From a bacterium (GTDB lineage Bacteria > SM23-31): a stretch of 64,000 bases of DNA. The notes under the pieces were generated by a model, which saw only the letters and a list, made by a program, of their open reading frames with translations, did not search any database and had not been told where the DNA came from. The position numbers were made by a program, and so were the translations under genes. The stretch covers positions 3,643,587 through 3,707,586 of the forward strand of contig OZ252239.1 of NCBI GenBank assembly GCA_965249485.1. Direction: 5' to 3'. Below, in pieces: positions 14,787-51,492 of this stretch; position 1 is the stretch's first letter; each line of letters begins with the position of its first letter.

Positions 14787-15606
14787 TTAAGCATATAACT
14801 TGAGGAGATCATTAATTGAAATACACTTTTTTTCTGCTTCCAAAGATCGTCCATTAAGAAGAATTGTTTCAGCAGTTTTTTTCATGATTGGATATGCACT
14901 TCTAAGAAGTTGATTTGCATATATAACAATATTCACTCCTAATTCTTTTAATGCAGTTTCTGTTAGATTGTTATATTTTGTAGAAATTGCGACAAGGGGA
15001 ACCCGTTTTTCAATTTGAGAATATTCCTGATAAAATGAGAGGATTTGCTGAGGAGTTTTTTCATTACTGTGGATCATGATTCCATCTGCACCAGCCTCGA
15101 TATAAGCATGTGCTCTTTTCAAAGCACCGTTTAAATCAGATCCGTGAATTAGACTTTCAATTCGACCAATAATCATAAAATCATTTGTGATCTGAGCTTG
15201 TTTCCCTTGAGATATTTTATAATGAAAAACTTTCAATAGAATCTTGAGTTTTTTTAAAGCCAGATTTCATTAATGAATTCTTTTTTAAAACTATTTGGTC
15301 ATCAATTATGACTGCTGTAACACCCATTCGTTCTAAAGTTTTTACTATATGAACAAATTGTTCTGGATGGACACCCCTATCTCCTTCAAAAATTGTCGGT
15401 TTTGTAGACGCTTTTAAAATTTGATTGGTAGTTTCAATTCTTGAAGAAAAATCGACATGCTCAAAATCTACTTTACCTTTTGAAAGACAGACAGTTTGGT
15501 TGCTAATCCAAATTCCATCAAATTCCTTAATAATATTATCAACTGTTACTCTGGTGTTTTCAACGATTAATCCTGAAATGCCGTTATGAGCTTCTAATAT
15601 TCGCAC
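14787..15606 (-). pseudogene. PEP mutase domain remnant (copy B), disrupted by a frameshift; EDK motif changed to DDQ
   Basis: Two overlapping ORFs, 15217–15606 and 14787–15236, in different frames. Together they align end-to-end with the C-terminal PEP-mutase part of copy A. The catalytic-loop sequence reads IIDDQIVLKKNSL where copy A has [13 protein letters not shown]. Confidence 0.6.
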
Positions 15607-15633
15607 AAATTTATTGGTCTGGAGTATTTTCCT

Positions 15634-16077
15634 TTATTTTTTTACTTTAGGGTTTTGTGGGATACCTAACACTCTTATTTTTTCATTCAGCAGTGTCGAG
15701 GATATTCCAGGAGTATATGGTATCTCAACTAATTCCCCATTCCACTCTTTTAAAGTATGTATAACTCGTGCTCTAATTTCTTTCTGTACTCCAGTTTTCC
15801 AATCATCGCCATGGACAACATAGTCGGGTTTCATTTTTCTTATATTCGGAATATAATCAAGCGTTTTCTGGGGTAGAACGTTTATAACTCCTTTGATACT
15901 TTGAATAACTGTTTTTCTTTGTTCATATGACATATAAGGCAATCGTTTGTAACCTGCAATCGCTTCATCAGTCAACAATCCTATTGTTACTTCTCCCAAT
16001 TTTCGAGCATGATTGATAATATTTATATGTCCGGGATGAATGAGATCAGCACTCATTCCAACGTAAACTTTCTTCAT
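15634..16077 (-). CDS. Cytidylyltransferase domain protein (copy B), severed from its PEP-mutase domain by an in-frame TAA
   Basis: 147 aa, ~70% identical to the N-domain of copy A, with the HxGH motif IHPGHINII. The TAA at 15634–15636 is in frame with the downstream mutase remnant. The linker is homologous to the copy-A interdomain linker. Confidence 0.6.
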
Positions 16078-16125
16078 TCGAATTTTCTGTGATTATTGAA
16101 TAATGTGTTTAAATTATATTTATAA

Positions 16126-16833
16126 TTATGTATATCTTTGCTCTTTGAAGTGAAGTACTGTTAAACTTGCATACCTTAACCACTGGATTTGTCTGAAAAC
16201 GGCAATTACTATCATTGCTATTAGAAGAGGATTTATTTTAAGATATGAATAGAGTGGTTCGTAAAATATCATACAAAAATAGATAAACTGTGGGTACCAT
16301 ATAAAGATTTTAAAAATCAATTTGCTGAATTTGCTTCTTTTCTTATCCTGGATTACAATATCTTTTCTACTCCGGTTTTTTAAATTTATATATGCGTCTA
16401 AAAATATTTCTTTAAATAGAAATCCAAAAGTATTAAAAAATAACACTAACCATATTATCGGATTATTTTCGATTTTATAAATTGCTAAGGACAAAAAGAA
16501 TCCAAATAGGCTAAAATCACTAAACAACAATAAATCCACCTTCATTTCCAACCAATATCCAAATTTAGTTTCCATTTTATTTAGTCTTGCCAGTTGTCCA
16601 TCAACGCAATCTAAAAGATAGTGGAATTCACAAAGTATTCCGGCAATTATAAAATATTGATATTCTGCTTTATAAAGCAAAAAATACAGTACTATTGATA
16701 GTGGTTGTCTGAATAATGTTACATGATTAGGCTTTATCTTAGTATTTTTTAAATAATAAGCAATTTTTTTTCCGCATTTGTTAAAGACACTGACTCTGTC
16801 TGCAGGATTTCCAAAAATTGTTGGGAACTTCAT
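16126..16833 (-). CDS. CDP-alcohol phosphatidyltransferase-family membrane protein (full length, copy B)
   Basis: 235 aa. Signature LDCVDGQLARLNKMETKFGYWLE. Multiple TM helices. Confidence 0.65.
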   Translation of the reverse strand: MKFPTIFGNPADRVSVFNKCGKKIAYYLKNTKIKPNHVTLFRQPLSIVLYFLLYKAEYQYFIIAGILCEFHYLLDCVDGQLARLNKMETKFGYWLEMKVDLLLFSDFSLFGFFLSLAIYKIENNPIIWLVLFFNTFGFLFKEIFLDAYINLKNRSRKDIVIQDKKRSKFSKLIFKIFIWYPQFIYFCMIFYEPLYSYLKINPLLIAMIVIAVFRQIQWLRYASLTVLHFKEQRYT

Positions 16834-16953
16834 ATTTTCCTCAAAAATATCTATCGCATTAATTACTCAGACAATCTTGCAGAATACCAGAATCCTTGAT
16901 GACTCACAAAACTCGCAAATATTATTAAGATAAATCCCCAAAAAAAACTTAAT

Positions 16954-17514
16954 TTATATTAAAGAGTTTCTTAGTTGATCTTTTATTTTCTCTGGGGTAT
17001 GACTAACGCGTGCTATTCCCTTGATATTTCCGGATTCCACATTAATCTGCACACAGATCGGACCGTTATTACTTATGATATTTTGAAAATATCTTTCTAA
17101 CTCACTTAATTCTGAAATCGTATTTACTGATACATATCCGGAGCTTTTTGCTATATCCGCAAGGTTAATATCTGAAGTAATGGTTTTCTGCCCGCCGGTC
17201 GAGCTGTACACCTGATTGTCAAAAATTATATGGTAATAGTTTTTAAGTTGCAAAAATCCGGCTAGTGGGAAATTCCCAAGATTCATGAGTGCACTACCGT
17301 CCCCATCAAATACAAAAACCGGAATATCCGGTTTATTAAGAGCAATGCCTATTCCTATAGATGAAGCATACCCCATAGATCCGATCATATAAAAATTGTT
17401 TGCCCTGTCATTGAGCGTAAACACTTCTCGGGAAATCATTCCTGTTGTACATATGATCGGTGCATTGTCAGGTAACACTTTAAAAATAACTTGTAACGCT
17501 TCTATTTTATTCAT
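16954..17514 (-). CDS. Phosphonopyruvate (or sulfopyruvate) decarboxylase, beta subunit (TPP-binding C-terminal domain)
   Basis: 186 aa. TPP-binding GDG…N motif (VFVFDGDGSALMNLGNF). Immediately downstream of the alpha subunit. Confidence 0.7.
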   Translation of the reverse strand: MNKIEALQVIFKVLPDNAPIICTTGMISREVFTLNDRANNFYMIGSMGYASSIGIGIALNKPDIPVFVFDGDGSALMNLGNFPLAGFLQLKNYYHIIFDNQVYSSTGGQKTITSDINLADIAKSSGYVSVNTISELSELERYFQNIISNNGPICVQINVESGNIKGIARVSHTPEKIKDQLRNSLI

Positions 17515-41252: not shown

Positions 41253-41292
41253 ACCGAGTGGCCGAAATTATTGATAAATGAGCGGAGACACC

Positions 41293-42618
41293 ATGAAAAA
41301 AACGCGTATGATTCTATTGGGTACTACGCTTGCAACACTATTTTATTGTTCCGATCCTCAATCCGAGTCGGAAATGGTAGCTGTCAATTATGCAACTGTA
41401 GAAGTAAATCAGGAAATTATAGATGAAATTGAAACCATAGCAGAAAGTCCGGACGTTCGGGAGGCTTTCGGAATCATTGAGGAACTTGAATCGCAGACAC
41501 ATAATGATCTTATCGTTTTGACGGAAATTCCCGCTCCTCCATTTATGGAAGAAAAACGGGGATTACAATATGCTGCAATGCTGCGGGACGCGGGCGCTGA
41601 TGCCGTGACTATAGACCGGGTTGGAAACGTCATTGCCCTTAGACAAGGTACGACAGGCACTAGAACTGTTGCGCTCGATGGGCACCTTGATACTGTCTTT
41701 CCCGAGGGGACTGACGTAACGGTTACAGTACGGGATGATACCCTCTTTGCACCGGGAATCGGCGACGACACAAGAGGTCTCGCAGTTATTCTTGCTGTTC
41801 TGAAAGCGCTGGAAATGGCAGATATCGAAACCCGTGACGATGTTCTGTTCATCGGTACTGTCGGTGAAGAAGGACTTGGTGATCTGCGCGGTGTCAAACA
41901 ACTTTTCAGTGATGCAGGACCTGGTATTGATTCGTGGATATCGGTTGACGGTGGTGGAATCGACAGAATTTCAAACGGCGGACTCGGATCACACCGGTAC
42001 CGGGTGACTTTCCGCGGACCCGGCGGGCATTCATGGGGAGCATTCGGGCTTGGAAATCCACACCATGCGCTCGGAAGAGCAATTACCTATTTTGTCGACG
42101 AGGCTGACCAATACACTGCGTCCGGACCAAAAACTACCTACAGTATTGGTAGAATTGGCGGTGGCACATCAATCAATGCCATCCCGTTTGAATCATGGAT
42201 GGAAGTCGATATGCGTTCTATTGTGCCCGAACGGGTCGACGAGATCGATACTATCTTTCAACAGGCTGTTCAGCGTGCGCTCAATGATCAGAATGCTTTA
42301 AACCGACACGGCCCACAGCTCTCTGTTGATGTCGATATGGTCGGTAACCGACCATCCGGAATGACTGATCAGGATAATTCACTTGTTCAGCGCGCTACCG
42401 CAGCAACGTTATATTTCGGTTATGAACCTTCGATAGGCATCGGTTCTACAAATGCAAATACACCTATGGCAGCAGGTATTCCGGCTATCTCAATCGGACG
42501 GGGTGGTGTCGGCGGGGGCGGCCATTCACTCGGAGAATGGTGGCTCAATAAAGACGGCCATATTGCAATTCAGTATGTATTGACTATTCTCCTTGCAGAG
42601 GCAGGTGTCGCAGAATGA
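41293..42618 (+). CDS. M20-family metallopeptidase (peptidase-T-like), lipoprotein
   Basis: Lipobox LFYCS. M20 motifs ALDGHLDTVFPEG and GIGDDTRGLAVIL, plus GTVGEEGLG. Confidence 0.7.
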   Translation: MKKTRMILLGTTLATLFYCSDPQSESEMVAVNYATVEVNQEIIDEIETIAESPDVREAFGIIEELESQTHNDLIVLTEIPAPPFMEEKRGLQYAAMLRDAGADAVTIDRVGNVIALRQGTTGTRTVALDGHLDTVFPEGTDVTVTVRDDTLFAPGIGDDTRGLAVILAVLKALEMADIETRDDVLFIGTVGEEGLGDLRGVKQLFSDAGPGIDSWISVDGGGIDRISNGGLGSHRYRVTFRGPGGHSWGAFGLGNPHHALGRAITYFVDEADQYTASGPKTTYSIGRIGGGTSINAIPFESWMEVDMRSIVPERVDEIDTIFQQAVQRALNDQNALNRHGPQLSVDVDMVGNRPSGMTDQDNSLVQRATAATLYFGYEPSIGIGSTNANTPMAAGIPAISIGRGGVGGGGHSLGEWWLNKDGHIAIQYVLTILLAEAGVAE

Positions 42619-43843: not shown

Positions 43844-45604
43844 ATGAAGAATAACAACCATTTTCGAGCGAAAGATACCGACATTAATCGCATTGAAATC
43901 AACCGCAGAAGGTTTGTCGAATGGTGTTCTGTCCTCGGTCTCAGTTCCACCCTGCTCCCGGGAGCTCTTGCACACGCCGCTCAGGATGCCCAAACGATTA
44001 CAACGGAAATGGTGCGATCTGCAGCCCGTATTGCCGGAATTGACTTTCCAGAGAAGTATTATGAACGATTTGCGAGGATGTTAAGTAGCGAAAATGGAAT
44101 GATGTCAAATTATAAAGCAATGCAGGAATTAGACATAAAAAATAGTGAGATGCCTGCAATCGATTTTAAACCCGTACCTGCCTGGATGAATATTCCCCGC
44201 GGAAAAGGTTCATTTCAGCGAAGTAGCGTTTCAGTGTCGATGCCCGATTCGAATGAAGAGATTGCTTTTCTTCCGGTTACACATTTATCCCGTCTCATCG
44301 AATTCCAGCAAATCACTTCAACGGATTTGACAAAACTTTATTTATCCCGGTTAAAAAAGTATGATCCTATTCTTTATTGTGTGGTGAGCCTCACCGAAGA
44401 CCTGGCGCTGCAGCAAGCAAAGAAGGCCGACGCAGAAATTGCGGCAGGTGTATACAAAGGGCCGCTACACGGAATCCCTTACGGTATCAAAGACCTGTTC
44501 GCCGTTAAGGGTTACCGGACAACCTGGGGTGCATCTCTCTATAAAGACCGCTTTTTTGATGTCAATGCGTCGGTTTTTGAGATACTTTCCGAGGCTGGCG
44601 CTGTTCTGGTAGCAAAGCTCTCGACTGGAGCACTTGCGTCCGGAGCCGATTGGTTTCGAGGTACAACCAGAAATCCATGGAATCCAAAACTGAATGCATA
44701 CGGTTCCTCGGCAGGTCCCGCTTCGGCAACTTCTGGCGGACTTGTTGGTTTTGCTGTTGGGACTGAAACTGCCGGATCGATCACCTCGCCTGCATCGGCG
44801 TGCGGTCTGTCAGGTATGCGTCCGACCTATGGTAGAATCAGCAGGTATGGGTGTATGGCTCTGAGCTGGACACTCGATAAAGTCGGTCCATTGTGCAGAT
44901 CTGCCGAAGACTGTGCGATTGTTTTTAATACAATATCCGGCCCGGATGGAAAAGATAATACTGTTTATGAAGTTCCGTTTAATTGGGATGGATCGACAGA
45001 CCTGACTGGGCTCAGAATCGGGTATTGGCCGAATATTGTGGAACAAGAAGACCCTGTCGAAGAAGACCATGAAGTAACAGGCAGAAGACTTGAACTCTCC
45101 CGTCACTATGAAGGAGAAGCAGTCACAATATTCCGCTCACTCGGTGCAGAGGTCGTTCCCTTTGAGATGCCGGATATGCAGGTTGATTTATTCAGCATTC
45201 TTTTTAATGTTGAAAGTGCGGCAGCGCTCAACGAATTAACACAGAGCGGCAATCTTGATATAATGTCAGAAGCTCCTGAATCGAGCGGATATCCGTCATC
45301 ACTCCGATTCGGCCGTCTGATTCCTGCCGTCGAGTACCTTCAAGCAAACCGAATCAGATCGCGCGTAATCGAAGAGTTCAATACAGCATTGAAAGACTTC
45401 GACCTCATCATAGGCAGCAGTGTCTACCTGACAAACATCACCGGCCATCCGGAAATTAGTGTACCACACGGATTTTATGATGAGGGAATGCCCGGAACAT
45501 TGCGTCTGACAGGGACACTATTCGGAGACGATGTTATGTTGAAAGTCGCACATGCTTTTCAGTCGAAAACTGGTCATCACCGCCACCATCCGAGTATGGC
45601 ATAA
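43844..45604 (+). CDS. Amidase-signature (AS) family amidase with a Tat signal peptide
   Basis: Twin-arginine motif NRRRFVEW followed by a hydrophobic h-region and AHA cleavage site. AS signature GSSAGPASATSGGLVGFAVGTETAGSITSPAS. Predicted catalytic Lys in GIKDLF. Confidence 0.8.
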   Translation: MKNNNHFRAKDTDINRIEINRRRFVEWCSVLGLSSTLLPGALAHAAQDAQTITTEMVRSAARIAGIDFPEKYYERFARMLSSENGMMSNYKAMQELDIKNSEMPAIDFKPVPAWMNIPRGKGSFQRSSVSVSMPDSNEEIAFLPVTHLSRLIEFQQITSTDLTKLYLSRLKKYDPILYCVVSLTEDLALQQAKKADAEIAAGVYKGPLHGIPYGIKDLFAVKGYRTTWGASLYKDRFFDVNASVFEILSEAGAVLVAKLSTGALASGADWFRGTTRNPWNPKLNAYGSSAGPASATSGGLVGFAVGTETAGSITSPASACGLSGMRPTYGRISRYGCMALSWTLDKVGPLCRSAEDCAIVFNTISGPDGKDNTVYEVPFNWDGSTDLTGLRIGYWPNIVEQEDPVEEDHEVTGRRLELSRHYEGEAVTIFRSLGAEVVPFEMPDMQVDLFSILFNVESAAALNELTQSGNLDIMSEAPESSGYPSSLRFGRLIPAVEYLQANRIRSRVIEEFNTALKDFDLIIGSSVYLTNITGHPEISVPHGFYDEGMPGTLRLTGTLFGDDVMLKVAHAFQSKTGHHRHHPSMA

Positions 45605-45828
45605 ATATATAAGATTGCAAGTGACTATTTTTTATCATATCAACCGGAATCCCAATTATGAACCAGGTATCTTTCGACAAATATGAAGTGAATGGACCTA
45701 AAATCAGATTACAAAGCGTGCACTTTTAGTCAATTATTTATTAATAGCCATCTGACAATAATAATAATCAAATCCTATAACAACATCCAATTCTAAAAAG
45801 ATTGTACCGCTCACTGAGGAGGAGTCAC

Positions 45829-47667
45829 ATGCGTTCCCTTCTTTATTCAATAATATATGTAATGTTTATTTCTTTTCCCGTTTCCACACAAGAAATCAAT
45901 TCGTTTTTTTATGAAGAACTCGTAGATATTGATTTCGATTTCAGCCGCTGGCCATATCCGTTGTACGAGGAAAATGCCAAGCGTATGCATGAACTTGCAA
46001 ACCAGTATCCCGAGATTGCGACACTGCACGTGATGGGAACAACACGGGAAGGCCGGGAAATGCTCCTGATGGAAATCACCAACAAGGCAACCGGACCCGG
46101 AGAAGATAAGCCGGGGCTCTATTTTGACGGGAACATGCATGCCGGTGAAGTAAACGGCCGTCCGACGATGATGTATTTTATTGAGCGGACGCTTGCCCGT
46201 TACGGTAAAGACGAGAAAATTACCCGTCTTGTCGATACCCGTGCATATTATGTCAATCCCATGTTCGACGCTGACGGTGGCGAGAAGGTTCTTACCCGTC
46301 ACCCTTCCTGGCCGGAACATAAACCCGAACAGCACAATGGGCAAGATCTTGATGGTGACGGCTATATTACTCAGATGCGGAAAAAAGACCCGGATGGGAG
46401 ATTGTATGAGAGTAAGAGAGATCCACGGTTAATGCTCGAAATCAGAAGAAGGAATGGGGGTCGAATGAATTACCTTCCGACTACCTATTCCGATACACTC
46501 TTCTTCAATTGGGAAGAACCCGATATCGGTTGGAAACGGATTTCGGGTAAATTAGAGACTTTCGACGATCCTATAGTTCCCCATGAAGACCGGTACGCTG
46601 TCTATACGGAGGGGCAGAGTTTTTATCGGGAAGTGAGTGTCGATCCTGCACCGCAGAATTTTAACCGGGGATGGTCAGCTGAATGGGATCCCTCATTACG
46701 TTCGTCCGGGCCATTTCCCTTTTACATACCCGAACTCCGCGCTGCAGTAAAATTTATGACAGATCATAAAAACATCTATTTTTATTACAATATTAACGCT
46801 GATAATCAGGCTAAAAATTACATTGTCCGACCGCCAATGGACCACCCCTATGAATTCATGCCACCGGAGGATAATGAATTTTATGTACGTCTTGGACAGG
46901 ATTGGTCGGTCATCAGCAATGGCGATTTGTTTGAAAGTGATTGGGCAAGCCAGGAAGTAAAAGTTGGCTACTATGGCAAATCGAATCACGGATTCGGTAT
47001 CGATTGGCAGTATATGCACAACGGAATTCACGGTTTGACACCCGAATTTAACGGTGCCGGCCGTGATTACGACGGCGACAGTTATGTTACCGAATTTGAG
47101 ATCATCCGGTGGAGCGATGAGGAAAAAGGGGGGCAATACTATGTCGATTGGAAGCCGTATAATCACCCACTGCTCGGTGATGTTGAAATCGGGGGTGTCC
47201 GTGCTCTTCCGGTTGCAGTTGATGAGAGACTCAAGGCAGAATGCGAGAAACATTTTAAGTTGATGATGCATGTCTCTGAGCTTGCTCCGGTGATTAAAGT
47301 GCTTGACGTATCATCTGAGCGTCTCAGAAGGAATGAGTATAAAATCACTGCCACTATCCAGAACGAGGGGTGGCTCTCGACTTATGTGACACGGAACGCA
47401 ATGAGAATTCGCCGTGACTTCCCTATTCTTGCCGGGATCAGTATTGAAGGCGGCGAATTGATTGAGGGTGATCCGACTCAGAATATAGGCCATATTCTCG
47501 GTAAAATCGCTTATATATGGCGCTGGGGTCAGGGATATGACGAATCGACAAAGACGGTGGAATGGACGATTAGAAAGACAGGTTCAGAGCCGCTTAATGT
47601 CTCGGTCGAAGCACGTGCCCATAAAGCTGGTCGTGATATACAGCGCATTGTAATTGAAAATGAATAA
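45829..47667 (+). CDS. Secreted M14-family zinc carboxypeptidase-like protein, paralog 1, with C-terminal β-sandwich domain; third zinc ligand His replaced by Asn
   Basis: Start at MRSLLYS, which has a GAGGAGG RBS and a signal peptide. M14 HxxE (NMHAGEV). At the position where paralogs 2 and 3 have TIHTGGG/TIHSGGG this copy reads NINADNQ. C-terminal ~170 aa is homologous in all three paralogs. Confidence 0.65.
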   Translation: MRSLLYSIIYVMFISFPVSTQEINSFFYEELVDIDFDFSRWPYPLYEENAKRMHELANQYPEIATLHVMGTTREGREMLLMEITNKATGPGEDKPGLYFDGNMHAGEVNGRPTMMYFIERTLARYGKDEKITRLVDTRAYYVNPMFDADGGEKVLTRHPSWPEHKPEQHNGQDLDGDGYITQMRKKDPDGRLYESKRDPRLMLEIRRRNGGRMNYLPTTYSDTLFFNWEEPDIGWKRISGKLETFDDPIVPHEDRYAVYTEGQSFYREVSVDPAPQNFNRGWSAEWDPSLRSSGPFPFYIPELRAAVKFMTDHKNIYFYYNINADNQAKNYIVRPPMDHPYEFMPPEDNEFYVRLGQDWSVISNGDLFESDWASQEVKVGYYGKSNHGFGIDWQYMHNGIHGLTPEFNGAGRDYDGDSYVTEFEIIRWSDEEKGGQYYVDWKPYNHPLLGDVEIGGVRALPVAVDERLKAECEKHFKLMMHVSELAPVIKVLDVSSERLRRNEYKITATIQNEGWLSTYVTRNAMRIRRDFPILAGISIEGGELIEGDPTQNIGHILGKIAYIWRWGQGYDESTKTVEWTIRKTGSEPLNVSVEARAHKAGRDIQRIVIENE

Positions 47668-47733
47668 TAAATAGGTTCAAAAAATTATTAAATACTATAA
47701 AGAATATCAGCCTTAATGTAAGGAGGGCTATTC

Positions 47734-49434
47734 ATGAGATTTTACATTTTTCTTTTTGCTGCGATTCTTCTCTCAATTACGGAGACCGAGGCACAGCGAA
47801 TTGAACTTCAGGATACACAACTCTCAAAGGAGCAATTCGACTCCCGCCGGTGGCCTTATCCGCTGCATGCAGAAGAATTAGAACGGATGGAGACTCTTGC
47901 CCGGCGTTATCCGAAATTAGTCAAACTGCACAATATCGGTAAGAGCACAGGCGGTTATGATCTCTGGTTAATTGAAGTAACCAATCAGGATACCGGACCA
48001 GGTGAATCGAAACCGGCTATGTGGATGGATTCAAATCTTCATCCTGATGAACTGCCCGGACGGCGATTCCTTCGGTACTTCTATGAGAGATTACTGGCAA
48101 GCTACGGAAAGGATCCGGAAGTTACACGGCTCGTCGATACCCGAACGTACTATATACTTCCAATCCTCAATCCCGATGCTGGTGAGTGGTTTTTGACACG
48201 ACAGCCTTCCTGGCCCGGACATGAACCGGAGCGGCATGTAGGAAAAGACCTCGACGGCGACGGATACATTACACGGATGCGTGTCAAAGACTCTTCGGCC
48301 AATAACGGTTACCGCACCTACATCGAAGGACAGGATATCAATGTTGGAGTCCGCGGCGCTTATTCCCGATACCGGGAGGCGTCGGGCAATCGTGAACCAG
48401 CCGATTTTAACCGAAATTGGTCAGCGGGGTGGCGACCGGAAGAACCGGGTGCAGGGCTGTATCCGTTTTCTCTGCCGGAAGTGTATGCTGTGGCTAAATT
48501 TATATCGGAGCATAAGAACATATTCTTCCATTACACAATTCATACCGGGGGCGGCATCAAGAATTATCAGGTTCGTCCACCCTTCAACTATCCATATCAG
48601 ACTATGCACCATGAGGACAACGATTTTTATGTCCGTCTCGGGGCAATTTGGGCAATGCTGAATGAAGGCGGCCTTATGGAGAATAATTACTACAGTTATG
48701 TTTTTACCGCCGGACGGTTCGATGATGAGGGAAATCAAATGGGGTACACAGCCACTATGGCAGGGTTTGCCGGTGATTGGGCATACAGCCATATGGGTAT
48801 TCACAGCCTTACACCCGAATGTTCCGGCGTTGGTATCGATTATAATGGCGACGGTTTTATCACCCGTCAGGAAGTGATGCGGTGGAATGAAGAAGAAGAA
48901 GGGGGAAGATTTTTTGCCGAGTGGAAACCATATAACCATCCTGAGCTCGGTGAAATCGAAATCGGCGGTGATCGTGATATGCCACAATCATACGGACGCA
49001 AACTCGATCGGGATGCAGATATTCAATACAAATTACTGTTGAATGTCGCCAATCTTGCACCAGAGGTTTCACTAGTTGATGTGCAGTCCAAGCAATTGTC
49101 ACGCCGTGAATACAAAATAACTGCAACTGTGAAAAATGATGGCTGGTTAGCAACCTATGTAACACGTCAGGCAATAGCGAATAGAAAGGATTTTCCTGTT
49201 ATTATTGATCTAGACATATCTGGGGGTGAAATTGTTGATGGAGCCAGCAGGACCAATATCGGGCATCTACTGGGGAAATGGAGTGATATCCGGAATTGGG
49301 ATGAAGGTGAAGATGTGCCGTCGCAGACTGTGGAATGGACAGTCCGTTCGATAGGATCTGAACCGCTGCAAATTACGGTCAATGCCTGGGCACATAAAGG
49401 CGGATCTGATAGCAAATCAATAACACTCGAATAA
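47734..49434 (+). CDS. Secreted M14-family zinc carboxypeptidase-like protein, paralog 2
   Basis: Signal peptide. HxxE (NLHPDEL), NPDAGEW, TIHTGGG and TPE motifs. RBS AAGGAGGG. Confidence 0.7.
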   Translation: MRFYIFLFAAILLSITETEAQRIELQDTQLSKEQFDSRRWPYPLHAEELERMETLARRYPKLVKLHNIGKSTGGYDLWLIEVTNQDTGPGESKPAMWMDSNLHPDELPGRRFLRYFYERLLASYGKDPEVTRLVDTRTYYILPILNPDAGEWFLTRQPSWPGHEPERHVGKDLDGDGYITRMRVKDSSANNGYRTYIEGQDINVGVRGAYSRYREASGNREPADFNRNWSAGWRPEEPGAGLYPFSLPEVYAVAKFISEHKNIFFHYTIHTGGGIKNYQVRPPFNYPYQTMHHEDNDFYVRLGAIWAMLNEGGLMENNYYSYVFTAGRFDDEGNQMGYTATMAGFAGDWAYSHMGIHSLTPECSGVGIDYNGDGFITRQEVMRWNEEEEGGRFFAEWKPYNHPELGEIEIGGDRDMPQSYGRKLDRDADIQYKLLLNVANLAPEVSLVDVQSKQLSRREYKITATVKNDGWLATYVTRQAIANRKDFPVIIDLDISGGEIVDGASRTNIGHLLGKWSDIRNWDEGEDVPSQTVEWTVRSIGSEPLQITVNAWAHKGGSDSKSITLE

Positions 49435-49477
49435 ACATTTTACGATTATTACCGTTTTTAAATGAGGAGGATTCTCC

Positions 49478-51196
49478 ATGCGTATCGTTTTGATTATCGC
49501 GCTCTTTCTCCAGTTTACACCTCTGGAAGTATCGGCGCAATACCTCAAAAATGAACCCGTTGACGGTTTCACATATGACTACGGAAGATGGCCCTATCCG
49601 CTCAATGAAGAGGTTGGTGTACGATTGAAGGAATTGGCAGATAAATATCCGGACATCGCACGGATTCATAACCTTGGGAAAACCCGCAGGGGTAAAGACC
49701 TCTGGGTAATGGAAATTTCCAACATTAAGACCGGCCCCGGCACAACGAAACCGGGACTCTGGATGGACGGCAATATCCATGCTGGTGAGTTAACGGGTCG
49801 GCAGTATCTGCACTATTTCATCGAGCGGATGCTCTATAGCTATGGTAAAGATGATAATGTTACCCGGCTCATTGACACACGCACGTTTTATATTATGCCG
49901 GTGTTTGATGCAGACGGCGGTGATATGCTGCTGTCACGACATCCTGCCTGGCCGGGACATAATCCGAGCGACATTCCCGGAAAAGATCTCAATGGAGACG
50001 GCTACATCACACAGATGCGGGTGAAGGATGATTCCGACGAAAACGGTTACCGGTATTATCTCGAAAGTCCGGAGGTGAAGACTGGCTTCTTCTCATCTTT
50101 CCCGCCGTTTCTGAATAGAAAGATGCGTAACCGTGTGACAGGAGAACGAGAAGGTGCGGATTTTAACCGGAACTGGTCTGCCGGATGGCGTCCGCAGGAA
50201 CCTGGTGCCGGATCCCGCCCGTATTCACTTCCCGAAGTTGCCGCTGTTGCGGATTTTATCGAAGAATTTAATAATATCTATTTCACCTACACTATCCATT
50301 CCGGCGGAGGTTCACGGAGTTACATGGTACGGCCGCCGATGAATGAACCGTACGAAACAATGCCGCCAGAGGACAACCACTTTTATGTACGCTCGGGCGC
50401 TGTTTGGTCGTATCTGAGCGACGGCGGTATTATGGAGAACAACTACTACAGTTTTCTGTTCAACACGAGTGAGATAAACCCGGAGACAGGAGAACAGTAC
50501 GGATACCGGGATACAATGTACGGATTTATGGACGATTGGGCCTATATGCAAGCAGGAATACATAGTATCACACCCGAGGTAAACGGCTCAGCGCCAGATT
50601 ACAATAATGACGGATGGATTAGAGAAGATGAAATTGACAAATGGCACTGGGAAGAAAAAGACGGTCAGTATTTTTCTCCATGGACTCCATATAACCATCC
50701 GGCTCTCGGTAACGTTGAGATCGGGGGTGAGCGGGGCATTCCTCCGGCAGTTGACGGTACGCTTAAAATGCATTGTGAGCAACAGTTCGATTATCTCCTC
50801 TATATTGCCGACCTTTCTCCCCTGCTCCGTATTGCAGATGTAAGTGTTGAAGAGGTTTCACGCAGAGAATACCGTATCACCGCTTATGTCCGCAACGACG
50901 GATGGCTCTCAACTTATGTGACCCAACGCGCAATCGAAATCAAGCGTGATCTCCCGGCAGTAGCCGAAATTGAAATAAAAGGCGGTGAGTTGATTGATGA
51001 TGAATCACTTAAGCAGATCGGCCATATTAAAGGTAAACTCGTCTATATCCGATCGTGGGGCGGGGGCGATGACCAATCGACAGAGTCGGTGTCGTGGGCA
51101 GTCCGTGCAAGCGGTTCCGGGCCTATCGAAGCGACCATCAAGGCGTGGGCACCAAAAGCTGGACGTGATATACAAACACTCACTATCGATCAGTAA
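49478..51196 (+). CDS. Secreted M14-family zinc carboxypeptidase-like protein, paralog 3
   Basis: Signal peptide. HxxE (NIHAGEL), DADGGDM, TIHSGGG and TPE motifs. RBS GAGGAGG. Confidence 0.7.
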   Translation: MRIVLIIALFLQFTPLEVSAQYLKNEPVDGFTYDYGRWPYPLNEEVGVRLKELADKYPDIARIHNLGKTRRGKDLWVMEISNIKTGPGTTKPGLWMDGNIHAGELTGRQYLHYFIERMLYSYGKDDNVTRLIDTRTFYIMPVFDADGGDMLLSRHPAWPGHNPSDIPGKDLNGDGYITQMRVKDDSDENGYRYYLESPEVKTGFFSSFPPFLNRKMRNRVTGEREGADFNRNWSAGWRPQEPGAGSRPYSLPEVAAVADFIEEFNNIYFTYTIHSGGGSRSYMVRPPMNEPYETMPPEDNHFYVRSGAVWSYLSDGGIMENNYYSFLFNTSEINPETGEQYGYRDTMYGFMDDWAYMQAGIHSITPEVNGSAPDYNNDGWIREDEIDKWHWEEKDGQYFSPWTPYNHPALGNVEIGGERGIPPAVDGTLKMHCEQQFDYLLYIADLSPLLRIADVSVEEVSRREYRITAYVRNDGWLSTYVTQRAIEIKRDLPAVAEIEIKGGELIDDESLKQIGHIKGKLVYIRSWGGGDDQSTESVSWAVRASGSGPIEATIKAWAPKAGRDIQTLTIDQ

Positions 51197-51237
51197 ACTG
51201 CATGGCTCTGACCGAACGATGCTATGATGCACTTTAG

Positions 51238-51279
51238 AAAATTCTGCCCCGAATAAAGGTAATTCGGAGCAGAATTTTA
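51238..51279. terminator. Rho-independent terminator closing the amidase–M14 gene array
   Basis: AAATTCTGCCCCGAAT-aaaggta-ATTCGGAGCAGAATTT, a ~15/16-bp stem with one mismatch, followed by a short T-run. Confidence 0.6.
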
Positions 51280-51440
51280 TGTTGCAACAAGATCTTAAAT
51301 ATAATTTAAAAAGCGATCATCAGATTTACTCATTCTCAGATTGGCAATGCTTCTATAAATTACCTACGTGCGTTAATCTTTGTTCGGATTATATAATTTC
51401 TGCAAATTTGTTCTTTATTTTGCAATTAAATTTATATAAC

Positions 51441-51469
51441 TTAACAGGTTGTTTAAAATTGCCTGTTAA
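51441..51469. promoter_or_regulatory. Inverted repeat TTAACAGG-N13-CCTGTTAA upstream of the DapA-family gene
   Basis: 8-bp perfect arms ending ~24 bp upstream of the ATG at 51493. Candidate operator. Confidence 0.35.
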
Positions 51470-51492
51470 CGTTCAAAGCTTAAGAGGATTCT

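Follow-up and report, generated by a model that had tools for sequence, protein, structure and literature searches.

Carboxypeptidase T (CPT) of Thermoactinomyces vulgaris (MEROPS M14A, PDB 1OBR) is a secreted, calcium-stabilised bacterial zinc carboxypeptidase in which the residue before a 'DW' motif sets S1′ specificity. The M14B (N/E) enzymes, including carboxypeptidase D (CPD), have no pro-segment and consist of a catalytic domain followed by a β-sandwich. CPD itself contains three tandem carboxypeptidase units that differ in specificity or pH optimum, domain III being inactive (PMC5683605; PMC11266112), and its domains have complementary specificities (PMC5683605). Co-secreted M14 paralogs are also found among the pancreatic enzymes CPA1, CPA2, and CPB, whose complementary S1′ pockets are partly set by residue 255 (Ile vs. 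Asp). Some vertebrate relatives have altered zinc ligands: at position 196, AEBP1 carries Asn and CPXM2 carries Gln, with H69 and E72 kept (Table 2, PMC11266112), and AEBP1 has further lost R127, R145, and E270 (PMC11266112). Here, we focus on three tandem M14 genes in a 64,000-nucleotide stretch of bacterial DNA (GTDB lineage SM23-31; NCBI GenBank assembly GCA_965249485.1, contig OZ252239.1, forward-strand positions 3,643,587 to 3,707,586), which is referred to as the window. The first of these genes encodes Asn in place of His at the third zinc-ligand position, owing to a single base change that is private to this lineage, within a three-gene set that is otherwise conserved.

The genes are named paralogs 1-3 in their order along the + strand, and all coordinates of window features are those of the whole window. 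They encode secreted M14 carboxypeptidases of 612 amino acids (aa) (paralog 1, 45829-47667, a member of a long-insert clade as judged by the open reading frame (ORF), Pfam, structural, and clade evidence given below), 566 aa (paralog 2, 47734-49434), and 572 aa (paralog 3, 49478-51196), the last two with intact catalytic sets. As in CPT, the HxxE motif, the NR pair, the His, and the catalytic Glu can be aligned, and the residue before the 'DW' motif lies at the S1′ site. However, identity to CPT is only ~17%, the window paralogs are without a pro-segment, and they add a ~60-130-aa DxDxDG insert, a second EF-hand-like loop, a β-hairpin, and a ~120-aa immunoglobulin (Ig)-like domain, while the counterpart of Arg127 is unrecognisable. 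The M14B-like layout is likewise imperfect, in that the profile similarity of the window paralogs is higher to M14A/CPT. Unlike CPD, the window has three separate genes rather than domains of one chain, all three are intact in orthologs, and the pocket floors are I, G, and D, whereas CPD is restricted to basic residues. The pancreatic set differs in consisting of eukaryotic zymogens with pro-domains and no C-terminal domain, and the specificities suggested for the bacterial triad come from its sequences. Paralog 1 has the same ligand state as AEBP1 (N196), but the eukaryotic M14 pseudopeptidases (AEBP1/ACLP, CPXM1, CPXM2, CPD-III, and Ecm14) carry additional losses (R127, R145, and/or E270) that their orthologs share, whereas the change in paralog 1 is single and private.

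Catalytic residues and the Asn323 codon

All three proteins match the Pfam family Peptidase_M14 (PF00246) with E values of 2.7e-32, 2.8e-38, and 5.8e-41 for paralogs 1, 2, and 3 (113, 132.6, and 141.4 bits, respectively, against a gathering cut-off of 21.6), which confirms the M14 assignment, with HxxE and TPE elements, made in an earlier sequence-only reading of this DNA. Catalytic residues were mapped by alignment to bovine carboxypeptidase A (CPA), CPB2, and CPT, using single sequences, a family profile, and hhalign, and their coordinates were verified. The HxxE zinc motif (CPA His69/Glu72) is represented by H104/E107 in paralog 1 (46138-46149), H103/E106 in paralog 2, and H101/E104 in paralog 3; the anchor of the C-terminal carboxylate (CPA Asn144/Arg145) by N279-R280 (46663-46668), N226/R227, and N230/R231; and the general base of the 'TPE' element (CPA Glu270) by E406 (47044-47046), E362, and E367. 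At the column of CPA His196, the third zinc ligand, paralogs 2 and 3 have H270 and H274, and paralog 1 has Asn323, encoded by AAC at 46795-46797 within NINADNQ. The earlier reading had noticed that this His is missing from paralog 1, and no other His was found to take its place. The mapping it had proposed could be completed for these six CPA positions and not for Arg127 and Tyr248. In the MAFFT, hmmsearch, and hhalign alignments alike, the residue opposite Arg127 is a variable K/E/N that follows a conserved Trp and precedes the family insert, the family-invariant R184 being a candidate counterpart only, and around Tyr248 the alignment is out of register by 2 residues with a conserved Tyr (Y382).

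The Asn codon results from a single C-to-A change at position 46795: the window has AAC where the related loci L001 and L002 have CAC and L003 has CAT, and the 30-nt context is otherwise identical to that of L001 and L002. Among 5.8 billion proteins searched, 135 relatives were found, and in the joint alignment (n = 124) His occupies the 196 column in 122 sequences, the exceptions being paralog 1 itself and one distant outlier with Asp. The closest orthologs read NIHADNQ (93% and 73% identity) and HADHN or HSDRN (61% and 57%). His323 is kept in the proteins of three sister chromosomes (3.78-3.83 Mb), which are 93% identical to paralog 1, and the aligned orthologs P0001, P0122, P0123, and P0002 all have His; His is also present in a 52% ortholog and in all other members of the long-insert clade. 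The 93% relative was traced to OZ244870.1 by a genome scan with the three-paralog alignment. The block around the site (residues 301-400) is nearly invariant, even at 73% overall identity. The exact paralog 1 of the window is on record from one 3.78-Mb contig only. Among the ORFs of 82 related loci, none combines N196 with an otherwise intact catalytic set; no Asn occurs at this column in 136 further full-length representatives obtained by exhaustive search; and a scan of Joint Genome Institute (JGI) metagenomes with a 30-mer around 46795, carrying either allele, gave no match. H323N is a lineage-private missense change of one base or, less probably, a consensus error.

Selective constraint on paralog 1

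In the comparison of the window with L001, paralogs 1, 2, and 3 have ratios of nonsynonymous to synonymous substitution rates (dN/dS) of 0.156, 0.083, and 0.142, respectively, and the flanking M20, GFO, amidase, and dihydrodipicolinate synthase (DHDPS) genes fall at 0.107-0.159. A relative-rate test with the 73% ortholog as outgroup counts 11 window-specific and 10 L001-specific changes in paralog 1 (p = 0.83). Besides H323N, the window-specific changes comprise nine conservative exchanges (such as K/R, I/V, D/E, and F/Y) and L273P, which lies in a low-confidence loop. A compensating metal ligand was considered and rejected, since the 11 window-specific substitutions include no new His, Asp, Glu, or Cys. 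Constraint on paralog 1 is not relaxed, and H323N is therefore either recent, functionally tolerated, or not real; paralog 1 does not resemble a pseudo-enzyme of long standing.

Fold and domain architecture of the subfamily

The window paralogs share 46-48% pairwise identity and belong to an uncharacterised bacterial M14 subfamily that has no pro-segment, DxDxDG inserts, and an Ig-like tail. No named NCBIfam family matches any of the three, and the subfamily comprises 182 clusters at E ≤ 1e-30 (50%-identity representatives). Among solved structures, CPT is the best profile match (E = 1.7e-28), and CPD-II and CPM are among the best matches in a single-sequence search of the Protein Data Bank (PDB). 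An AlphaFold2 (AF2) model of paralog 1, built on the family alignment, has a predicted local distance difference test (pLDDT) score of 86.6 and a predicted template modelling (pTM) score of 0.88; it has an M14-like fold, and a Foldseek search against the PDB retrieves CPT, CPB, CPA, and CPD-II. A Pfam scan found no pro-peptide (Propep_M14) in paralogs 1-3, and the catalytic domain starts (conserved RWPYPL, residue 40) ~18 residues past the predicted signal peptide.

Two EF-hand-like DxDxDG loops are present in each protein. In paralog 1, the first is DLDGDGYITQMR (46345-46380), which contains the invariant columns D173, G176, and I180 and ends in the family-invariant R184; this loop is invariant in the family, is retained even in its pseudo-copies (see below), and stands at the start of the family-specific insert, which falls between CPA positions ~127 and 144. 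The second loop, DYDGDSYVTEFE (47065-47100), follows the Glu270 counterpart, with a β-hairpin alongside it, and the corresponding site of paralog 2 has a sub-threshold Pfam EF-hand match. With its DxDxDG motif, the first loop probably binds Ca. The family insert itself, which follows the conserved Trp near CPA ~126, spans 58-75 residues in the paralog 2 and paralog 3 clades and 90-133 residues in that of paralog 1. The sequence-only reading had described an insertion of ~60 aa particular to paralog 1; extra sequence does exist, but it comprises ~50 aa split between two blocks and characterises a large clade, and the idea that it marks degeneration was rejected on that ground.

The ~80 aa before the C-terminal domain (the EF-hand-like loop, the β-hairpin, and the last helix) belong to the catalytic domain. 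The C-terminal Ig-like β-sandwich of paralog 1 is consequently shorter than the ~170 aa proposed earlier, namely about 120 aa (residues 489-609; 47293-47655), although its presence in all three proteins is borne out. As for the CARDB-like pattern attributed to it, the CARDB profile (PF07705) gives no match that exceeds its gathering score.

Conservation of the triad and its S1′ pocket floors

The S1′ pocket floor is the residue preceding a conserved Asp-Trp. By alignment to CPA 'SIDW' (CPA Ile255/CPB Asp255), it is Ile391 in paralog 1 (46999-47001), Gly347 in paralog 2 (48772-48774), and Asp352 in paralog 3 (50531-50533), the last being CPB-like; the CPT residue at this site is presumably Thr262, a position known from CPT engineering. 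At the clade level, the paralog 1 group keeps I/V/T at the floor. In a neighbour-joining tree, paralogs 1-3 fall into three deep clades, and by sequence the triad is old and its copies are ancient paralogs. Triads in full synteny occur in the sister genomes (L001, L002, and L012), and non-syntenic triads of varying gene order in L003 (the 73% relative), L083 (the 61% relative), and L011 (an Acidobacteriota metagenome-assembled genome), so that the triad recurs in at least four other lineages or contexts. Every triad examined has one Ile-type, one Gly/Asn/Pro-type, and one Asp-type floor, and all their members have the catalytic pattern HENRHE. By analogy with characterised enzymes, these floors suggest complementary substrate specificities and a division of labour in C-terminal trimming.

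Further observations concern the distribution of the subfamily. Two more members, P0073 and P0094, are listed from the same contig as paralog 1 (3,779,686 bp), with Asn and Thr at their pocket floors, and the genome therefore probably holds at least five subfamily paralogs. In L003, the triad is flanked by rve/HTH_Tnp_1 transposase fragments of insertion sequence (IS) type and a phage integrase (6800-8100 and 17600-21600 of that locus), and in L083 (9500-14900) it adjoins an MmeI-type restriction-modification enzyme, an ERF recombinase, and ParA. Since the triad adjoins mobile or defence genes outside the sister genomes, horizontal movement of the three-gene M14 module is suggested.

Pseudo-M14 pairs and other ligand variants in the family

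Tandem pairs, in which an upstream copy with a weak score precedes an intact M14 copy, are present in ~35 distant loci of Bacteroidota, Planctomycetota, Gemmatimonadota, Aminicenantes, and Clostridia. The upstream copies lack all four of H69, E72, H196, and E270 (typical patterns EHRNRG-P and EIRGIG-N) and retain the NGDGYITxMR loop, the VEIGG motif, and the C-terminal domain. Examples include L074 (6183-9560, Pararhodonellum marinum SW124), in which the upstream copy is still recognised as Pfam Peptidase_M14 (E = 1.4e-13), together with L072, L062, L047, L044, L068, L070, L035, L038, and L040, and further L045-L051, L053, L058, L065-L067, L071, L073, L075, and L080. Such pairs look like a bacterial system of one pseudo-M14 and one active M14 protein; a 2024 review of pseudopeptidases contains only eukaryotic M14 examples and no bacterial pair of this kind (PMC11266112).

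Two other ligand variants occur naturally in the family. A single-copy clade with the pattern HERHRD.E (L032-L034, L036, L037, L039, L043, L052, L057, L059, L061, L064, L079, and L082) couples Asp at position 196 with His at position 144 ('LDLHRNYPENW' and 'SLDTAVP'; alignment at 25-29% identity) and may have a remodelled metal site. The pattern DENRHE, with Asp for His69 and the rest intact, is present in 7 of the 136 full-length representatives (P0133-P0281).

Interpretation of paralog 1

The explanation that we favour, and regard as somewhat better than an even bet, is that the three genes form a conserved set encoding active, secreted carboxypeptidases whose pockets complement one another, and that paralog 1 in this genome carries a real and recent H323N change that probably impairs zinc binding. 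Under this explanation, paralogs 1-3 would be Sec-exported zinc metallocarboxypeptidases, of which paralog 1 (Ile, CPA-like) would act on hydrophobic C-termini, paralog 3 (Asp, CPB-like) on Lys/Arg C-termini, and paralog 2 (Gly) would have a different or broad preference. Together, they would trim different C-terminal residues of exported or environmental peptides for amino-acid scavenging, a role that may be shared with the neighbouring M20 peptidase and the Tat-exported amidase. H323N would weaken zinc binding and lower or abolish the activity of paralog 1 alone, in this genome alone, and would be tolerated because other paralogs of the family exist.

Several points weigh against this explanation. 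The Asn allele has been seen in one assembly only. The specificities are read from one position (CPA 255) of a pocket whose determinants also include CPA positions 207, 243, 250, 253, and 268, and the catalytic machinery of all three paralogs may differ in detail from that of CPA, because Arg127 and Tyr248 cannot be placed by sequence (equally in paralogs 1-3). Proximity is the basis for assuming co-transcription and a connection with the neighbouring peptidases, and the triad also occurs without those neighbours. Finally, amide ligands can support catalysis in some zinc/metal hydrolases, such as Csd4 with QxxE...H (PMC4220969).

The last point leads to the strongest of the alternatives, which we nevertheless judge unlikely: Asn323 is real but nearly neutral, its carboxamide (or a bridging water) coordinating the metal, so that paralog 1 stays active, though it may bind zinc less tightly or prefer another metal. 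All other catalytic residues of paralog 1 are indeed kept under undiminished purifying selection, and the HERHRD.E clade shows that the family tolerates a residue other than His at position 196. His-to-Asn and His-to-Gln ligand variants of carbonic anhydrase II reportedly retain some activity with much lower zinc affinity. In Csd4, an active enzyme with the M14 fold, a Gln ligand is strictly conserved (PMC4220969). However, His196 is invariant in several hundred catalytically intact relatives, implying strong selection against any replacement; the N144H change coupled to Asp196 in the HERHRD.E clade is absent from paralog 1; and the M14 proteins with N196 or Q196, AEBP1 and CPXM2, are inactive, though they have also lost other residues (PMC11266112).

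A shade less likely is that the A at 46795 is an error of assembly or consensus calling, or represents a minority variant, and that the organism encodes His323. It concerns one base in 30 nt otherwise identical to L001 and L002, in the most conserved block of the protein, where a real substitution would be least expected a priori; the exact protein comes from one contig only, with no record in the gene-position index, and the JGI scan supplied no independent contig with either allele. On the other hand, ~7% of the bases in the window's genes, taken together, differ from those of L001, which makes the window a separate lineage with many genuine differences. In addition, the site is a substitution rather than an indel and lies outside any homopolymer, the three genes show no other frame or stop anomalies, and the chance that a rare random error would strike exactly this codon is very small.

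Two further proposals assign paralog 1 a non-catalytic role. It is highly improbable, in our view, that tandem paralogs of the subfamily assemble into hetero-oligomers whose subunits may lose their catalytic function, as in the pairs of pseudo- and active M14 proteins, with paralog 1 at an early stage of this process and kept for binding or assembly. Least probable of all, by a slight further step, is the proposal of the sequence-only reading that paralog 1 is an evolved pseudo-peptidase or binding subunit working with two catalytic copies: it can appeal to the Asn shared with the vertebrate pseudopeptidase AEBP1 (PMC11266112), to a tight tandem arrangement compatible with a complex, and to the pseudo-M14 and active M14 pairs of distant family members, which make catalytically dead partner subunits a route already taken by the family, but it fails because all orthologs, those of three genomes at 93% identity among them, retain the His, because a single base leaves paralog 1 one residue short of the full set where the pseudo-copies have jointly lost H69, E72, H196, and E270, because neither dN/dS nor the relative-rate test shows a shift in constraint, and because the insertion cited in its favour is common to a large, catalytically intact clade.

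Genes, signals, and neighbourhood

The ORFs of the three genes agree with those described earlier, without any frame or stop anomaly. Each is preceded by a strong Shine-Dalgarno ribosome-binding site (RBS) of its own 4-6 nt before its ATG, as had been stated: GAGGAGGAG for paralog 1 (45816-45824, + strand), AAGGAGGG for paralog 2 (47720-47727, + strand), and GAGGAGGA for paralog 3 (49464-49471, + strand). A TTG at 45802 would extend paralog 1 by 9 aa, and the ATG is favoured by the RBS and the orthologs. The N-termini are Sec-like, again as described, by sequence reading and hydropathy calculation: they begin with MR, reach a 12-mer hydropathy of 2.2-2.7, and end in VST/Q, TEA/Q, and VSA/Q in paralogs 1, 2, and 3, so that the n-region, the h-region, and small residues at -3/-1 of a predicted signal peptide are present in all three. 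In the AF2 model of paralog 1, the N-terminal helix (residues 2-28) has low confidence.

A stable hairpin 3′ of paralog 3 (51238-51278, + strand; dG -19.6 kcal/mol, z -4.79) is a possible intrinsic terminator. The strong hairpin reported after this gene is thus real, but its designation as a Rho-independent terminator is less certain: the consensus scan for terminators does not flag it, the base is A/U-rich and the U run lies mostly within the stem, only UUUUAUGUUG follows or overlaps the stem, and the hairpin was not found in the related loci L001, L002, L012, and L003. In the window, 296 nt (51197-51492) separate paralog 3 from the DHDPS-family gene; in L001 the gap measures ~1.6 kb (15378-16990), holds a TfoX_N-like ORF and small ORFs, and gives no blastn alignment to the window gap. 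Rfam yields no match in the window.

Directly upstream of the triad lies an amidase-signature enzyme (43844-45604, + strand; Pfam PF01425, E = 1.8e-70) with a twin-arginine translocation (Tat) leader, in which RRRFVE at residues 21-26 is followed by a hydrophobic stretch and AHA/A, in line with its earlier description as a Tat-exported amidase. It keeps its place in L001 and L002 and not in L003 or L083, and was rejected as a part of the triad module, being absent from the triad loci L003, L083, and L011. Farther upstream, an M20/M28-type peptidase (41278-42618) has a lipoprotein-like N-terminus, MKKTRMILLGTTLATLFYC..., which brings the exported hydrolases within 10 kb to five (this peptidase, the Tat amidase, and the three Sec-exported M14 enzymes). 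Elsewhere in the window, a block at 10000-34000 has 29-37% GC, compared with ~45% in the rest, and carries genes with surface-polysaccharide/glycoconjugate functions: a Wzx-like flippase, GT2, a PMT_2-like transferase, a polysaccharide deacetylase, a CDP-alcohol phosphatidyltransferase, Fe-ADH, an aldo-keto reductase, and an LPG_synthase_TM protein. This block is probably a variable cell-surface island.

Implications for the M14 family

If true, the claim that paralog 1 is a pseudo-peptidase would extend a list of pseudo-carboxypeptidases that has so far been purely eukaryotic. Paralog 1 is a single-base private variant of an otherwise normal enzyme, and the claim should therefore not be propagated; the pairs of pseudo- and active M14 genes outside the window are a more promising lead in this respect. 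What the locus itself offers is an uncharacterised M14 subfamily and a conserved three-gene set whose pocket floors suggest testable differences in C-terminal specificity.

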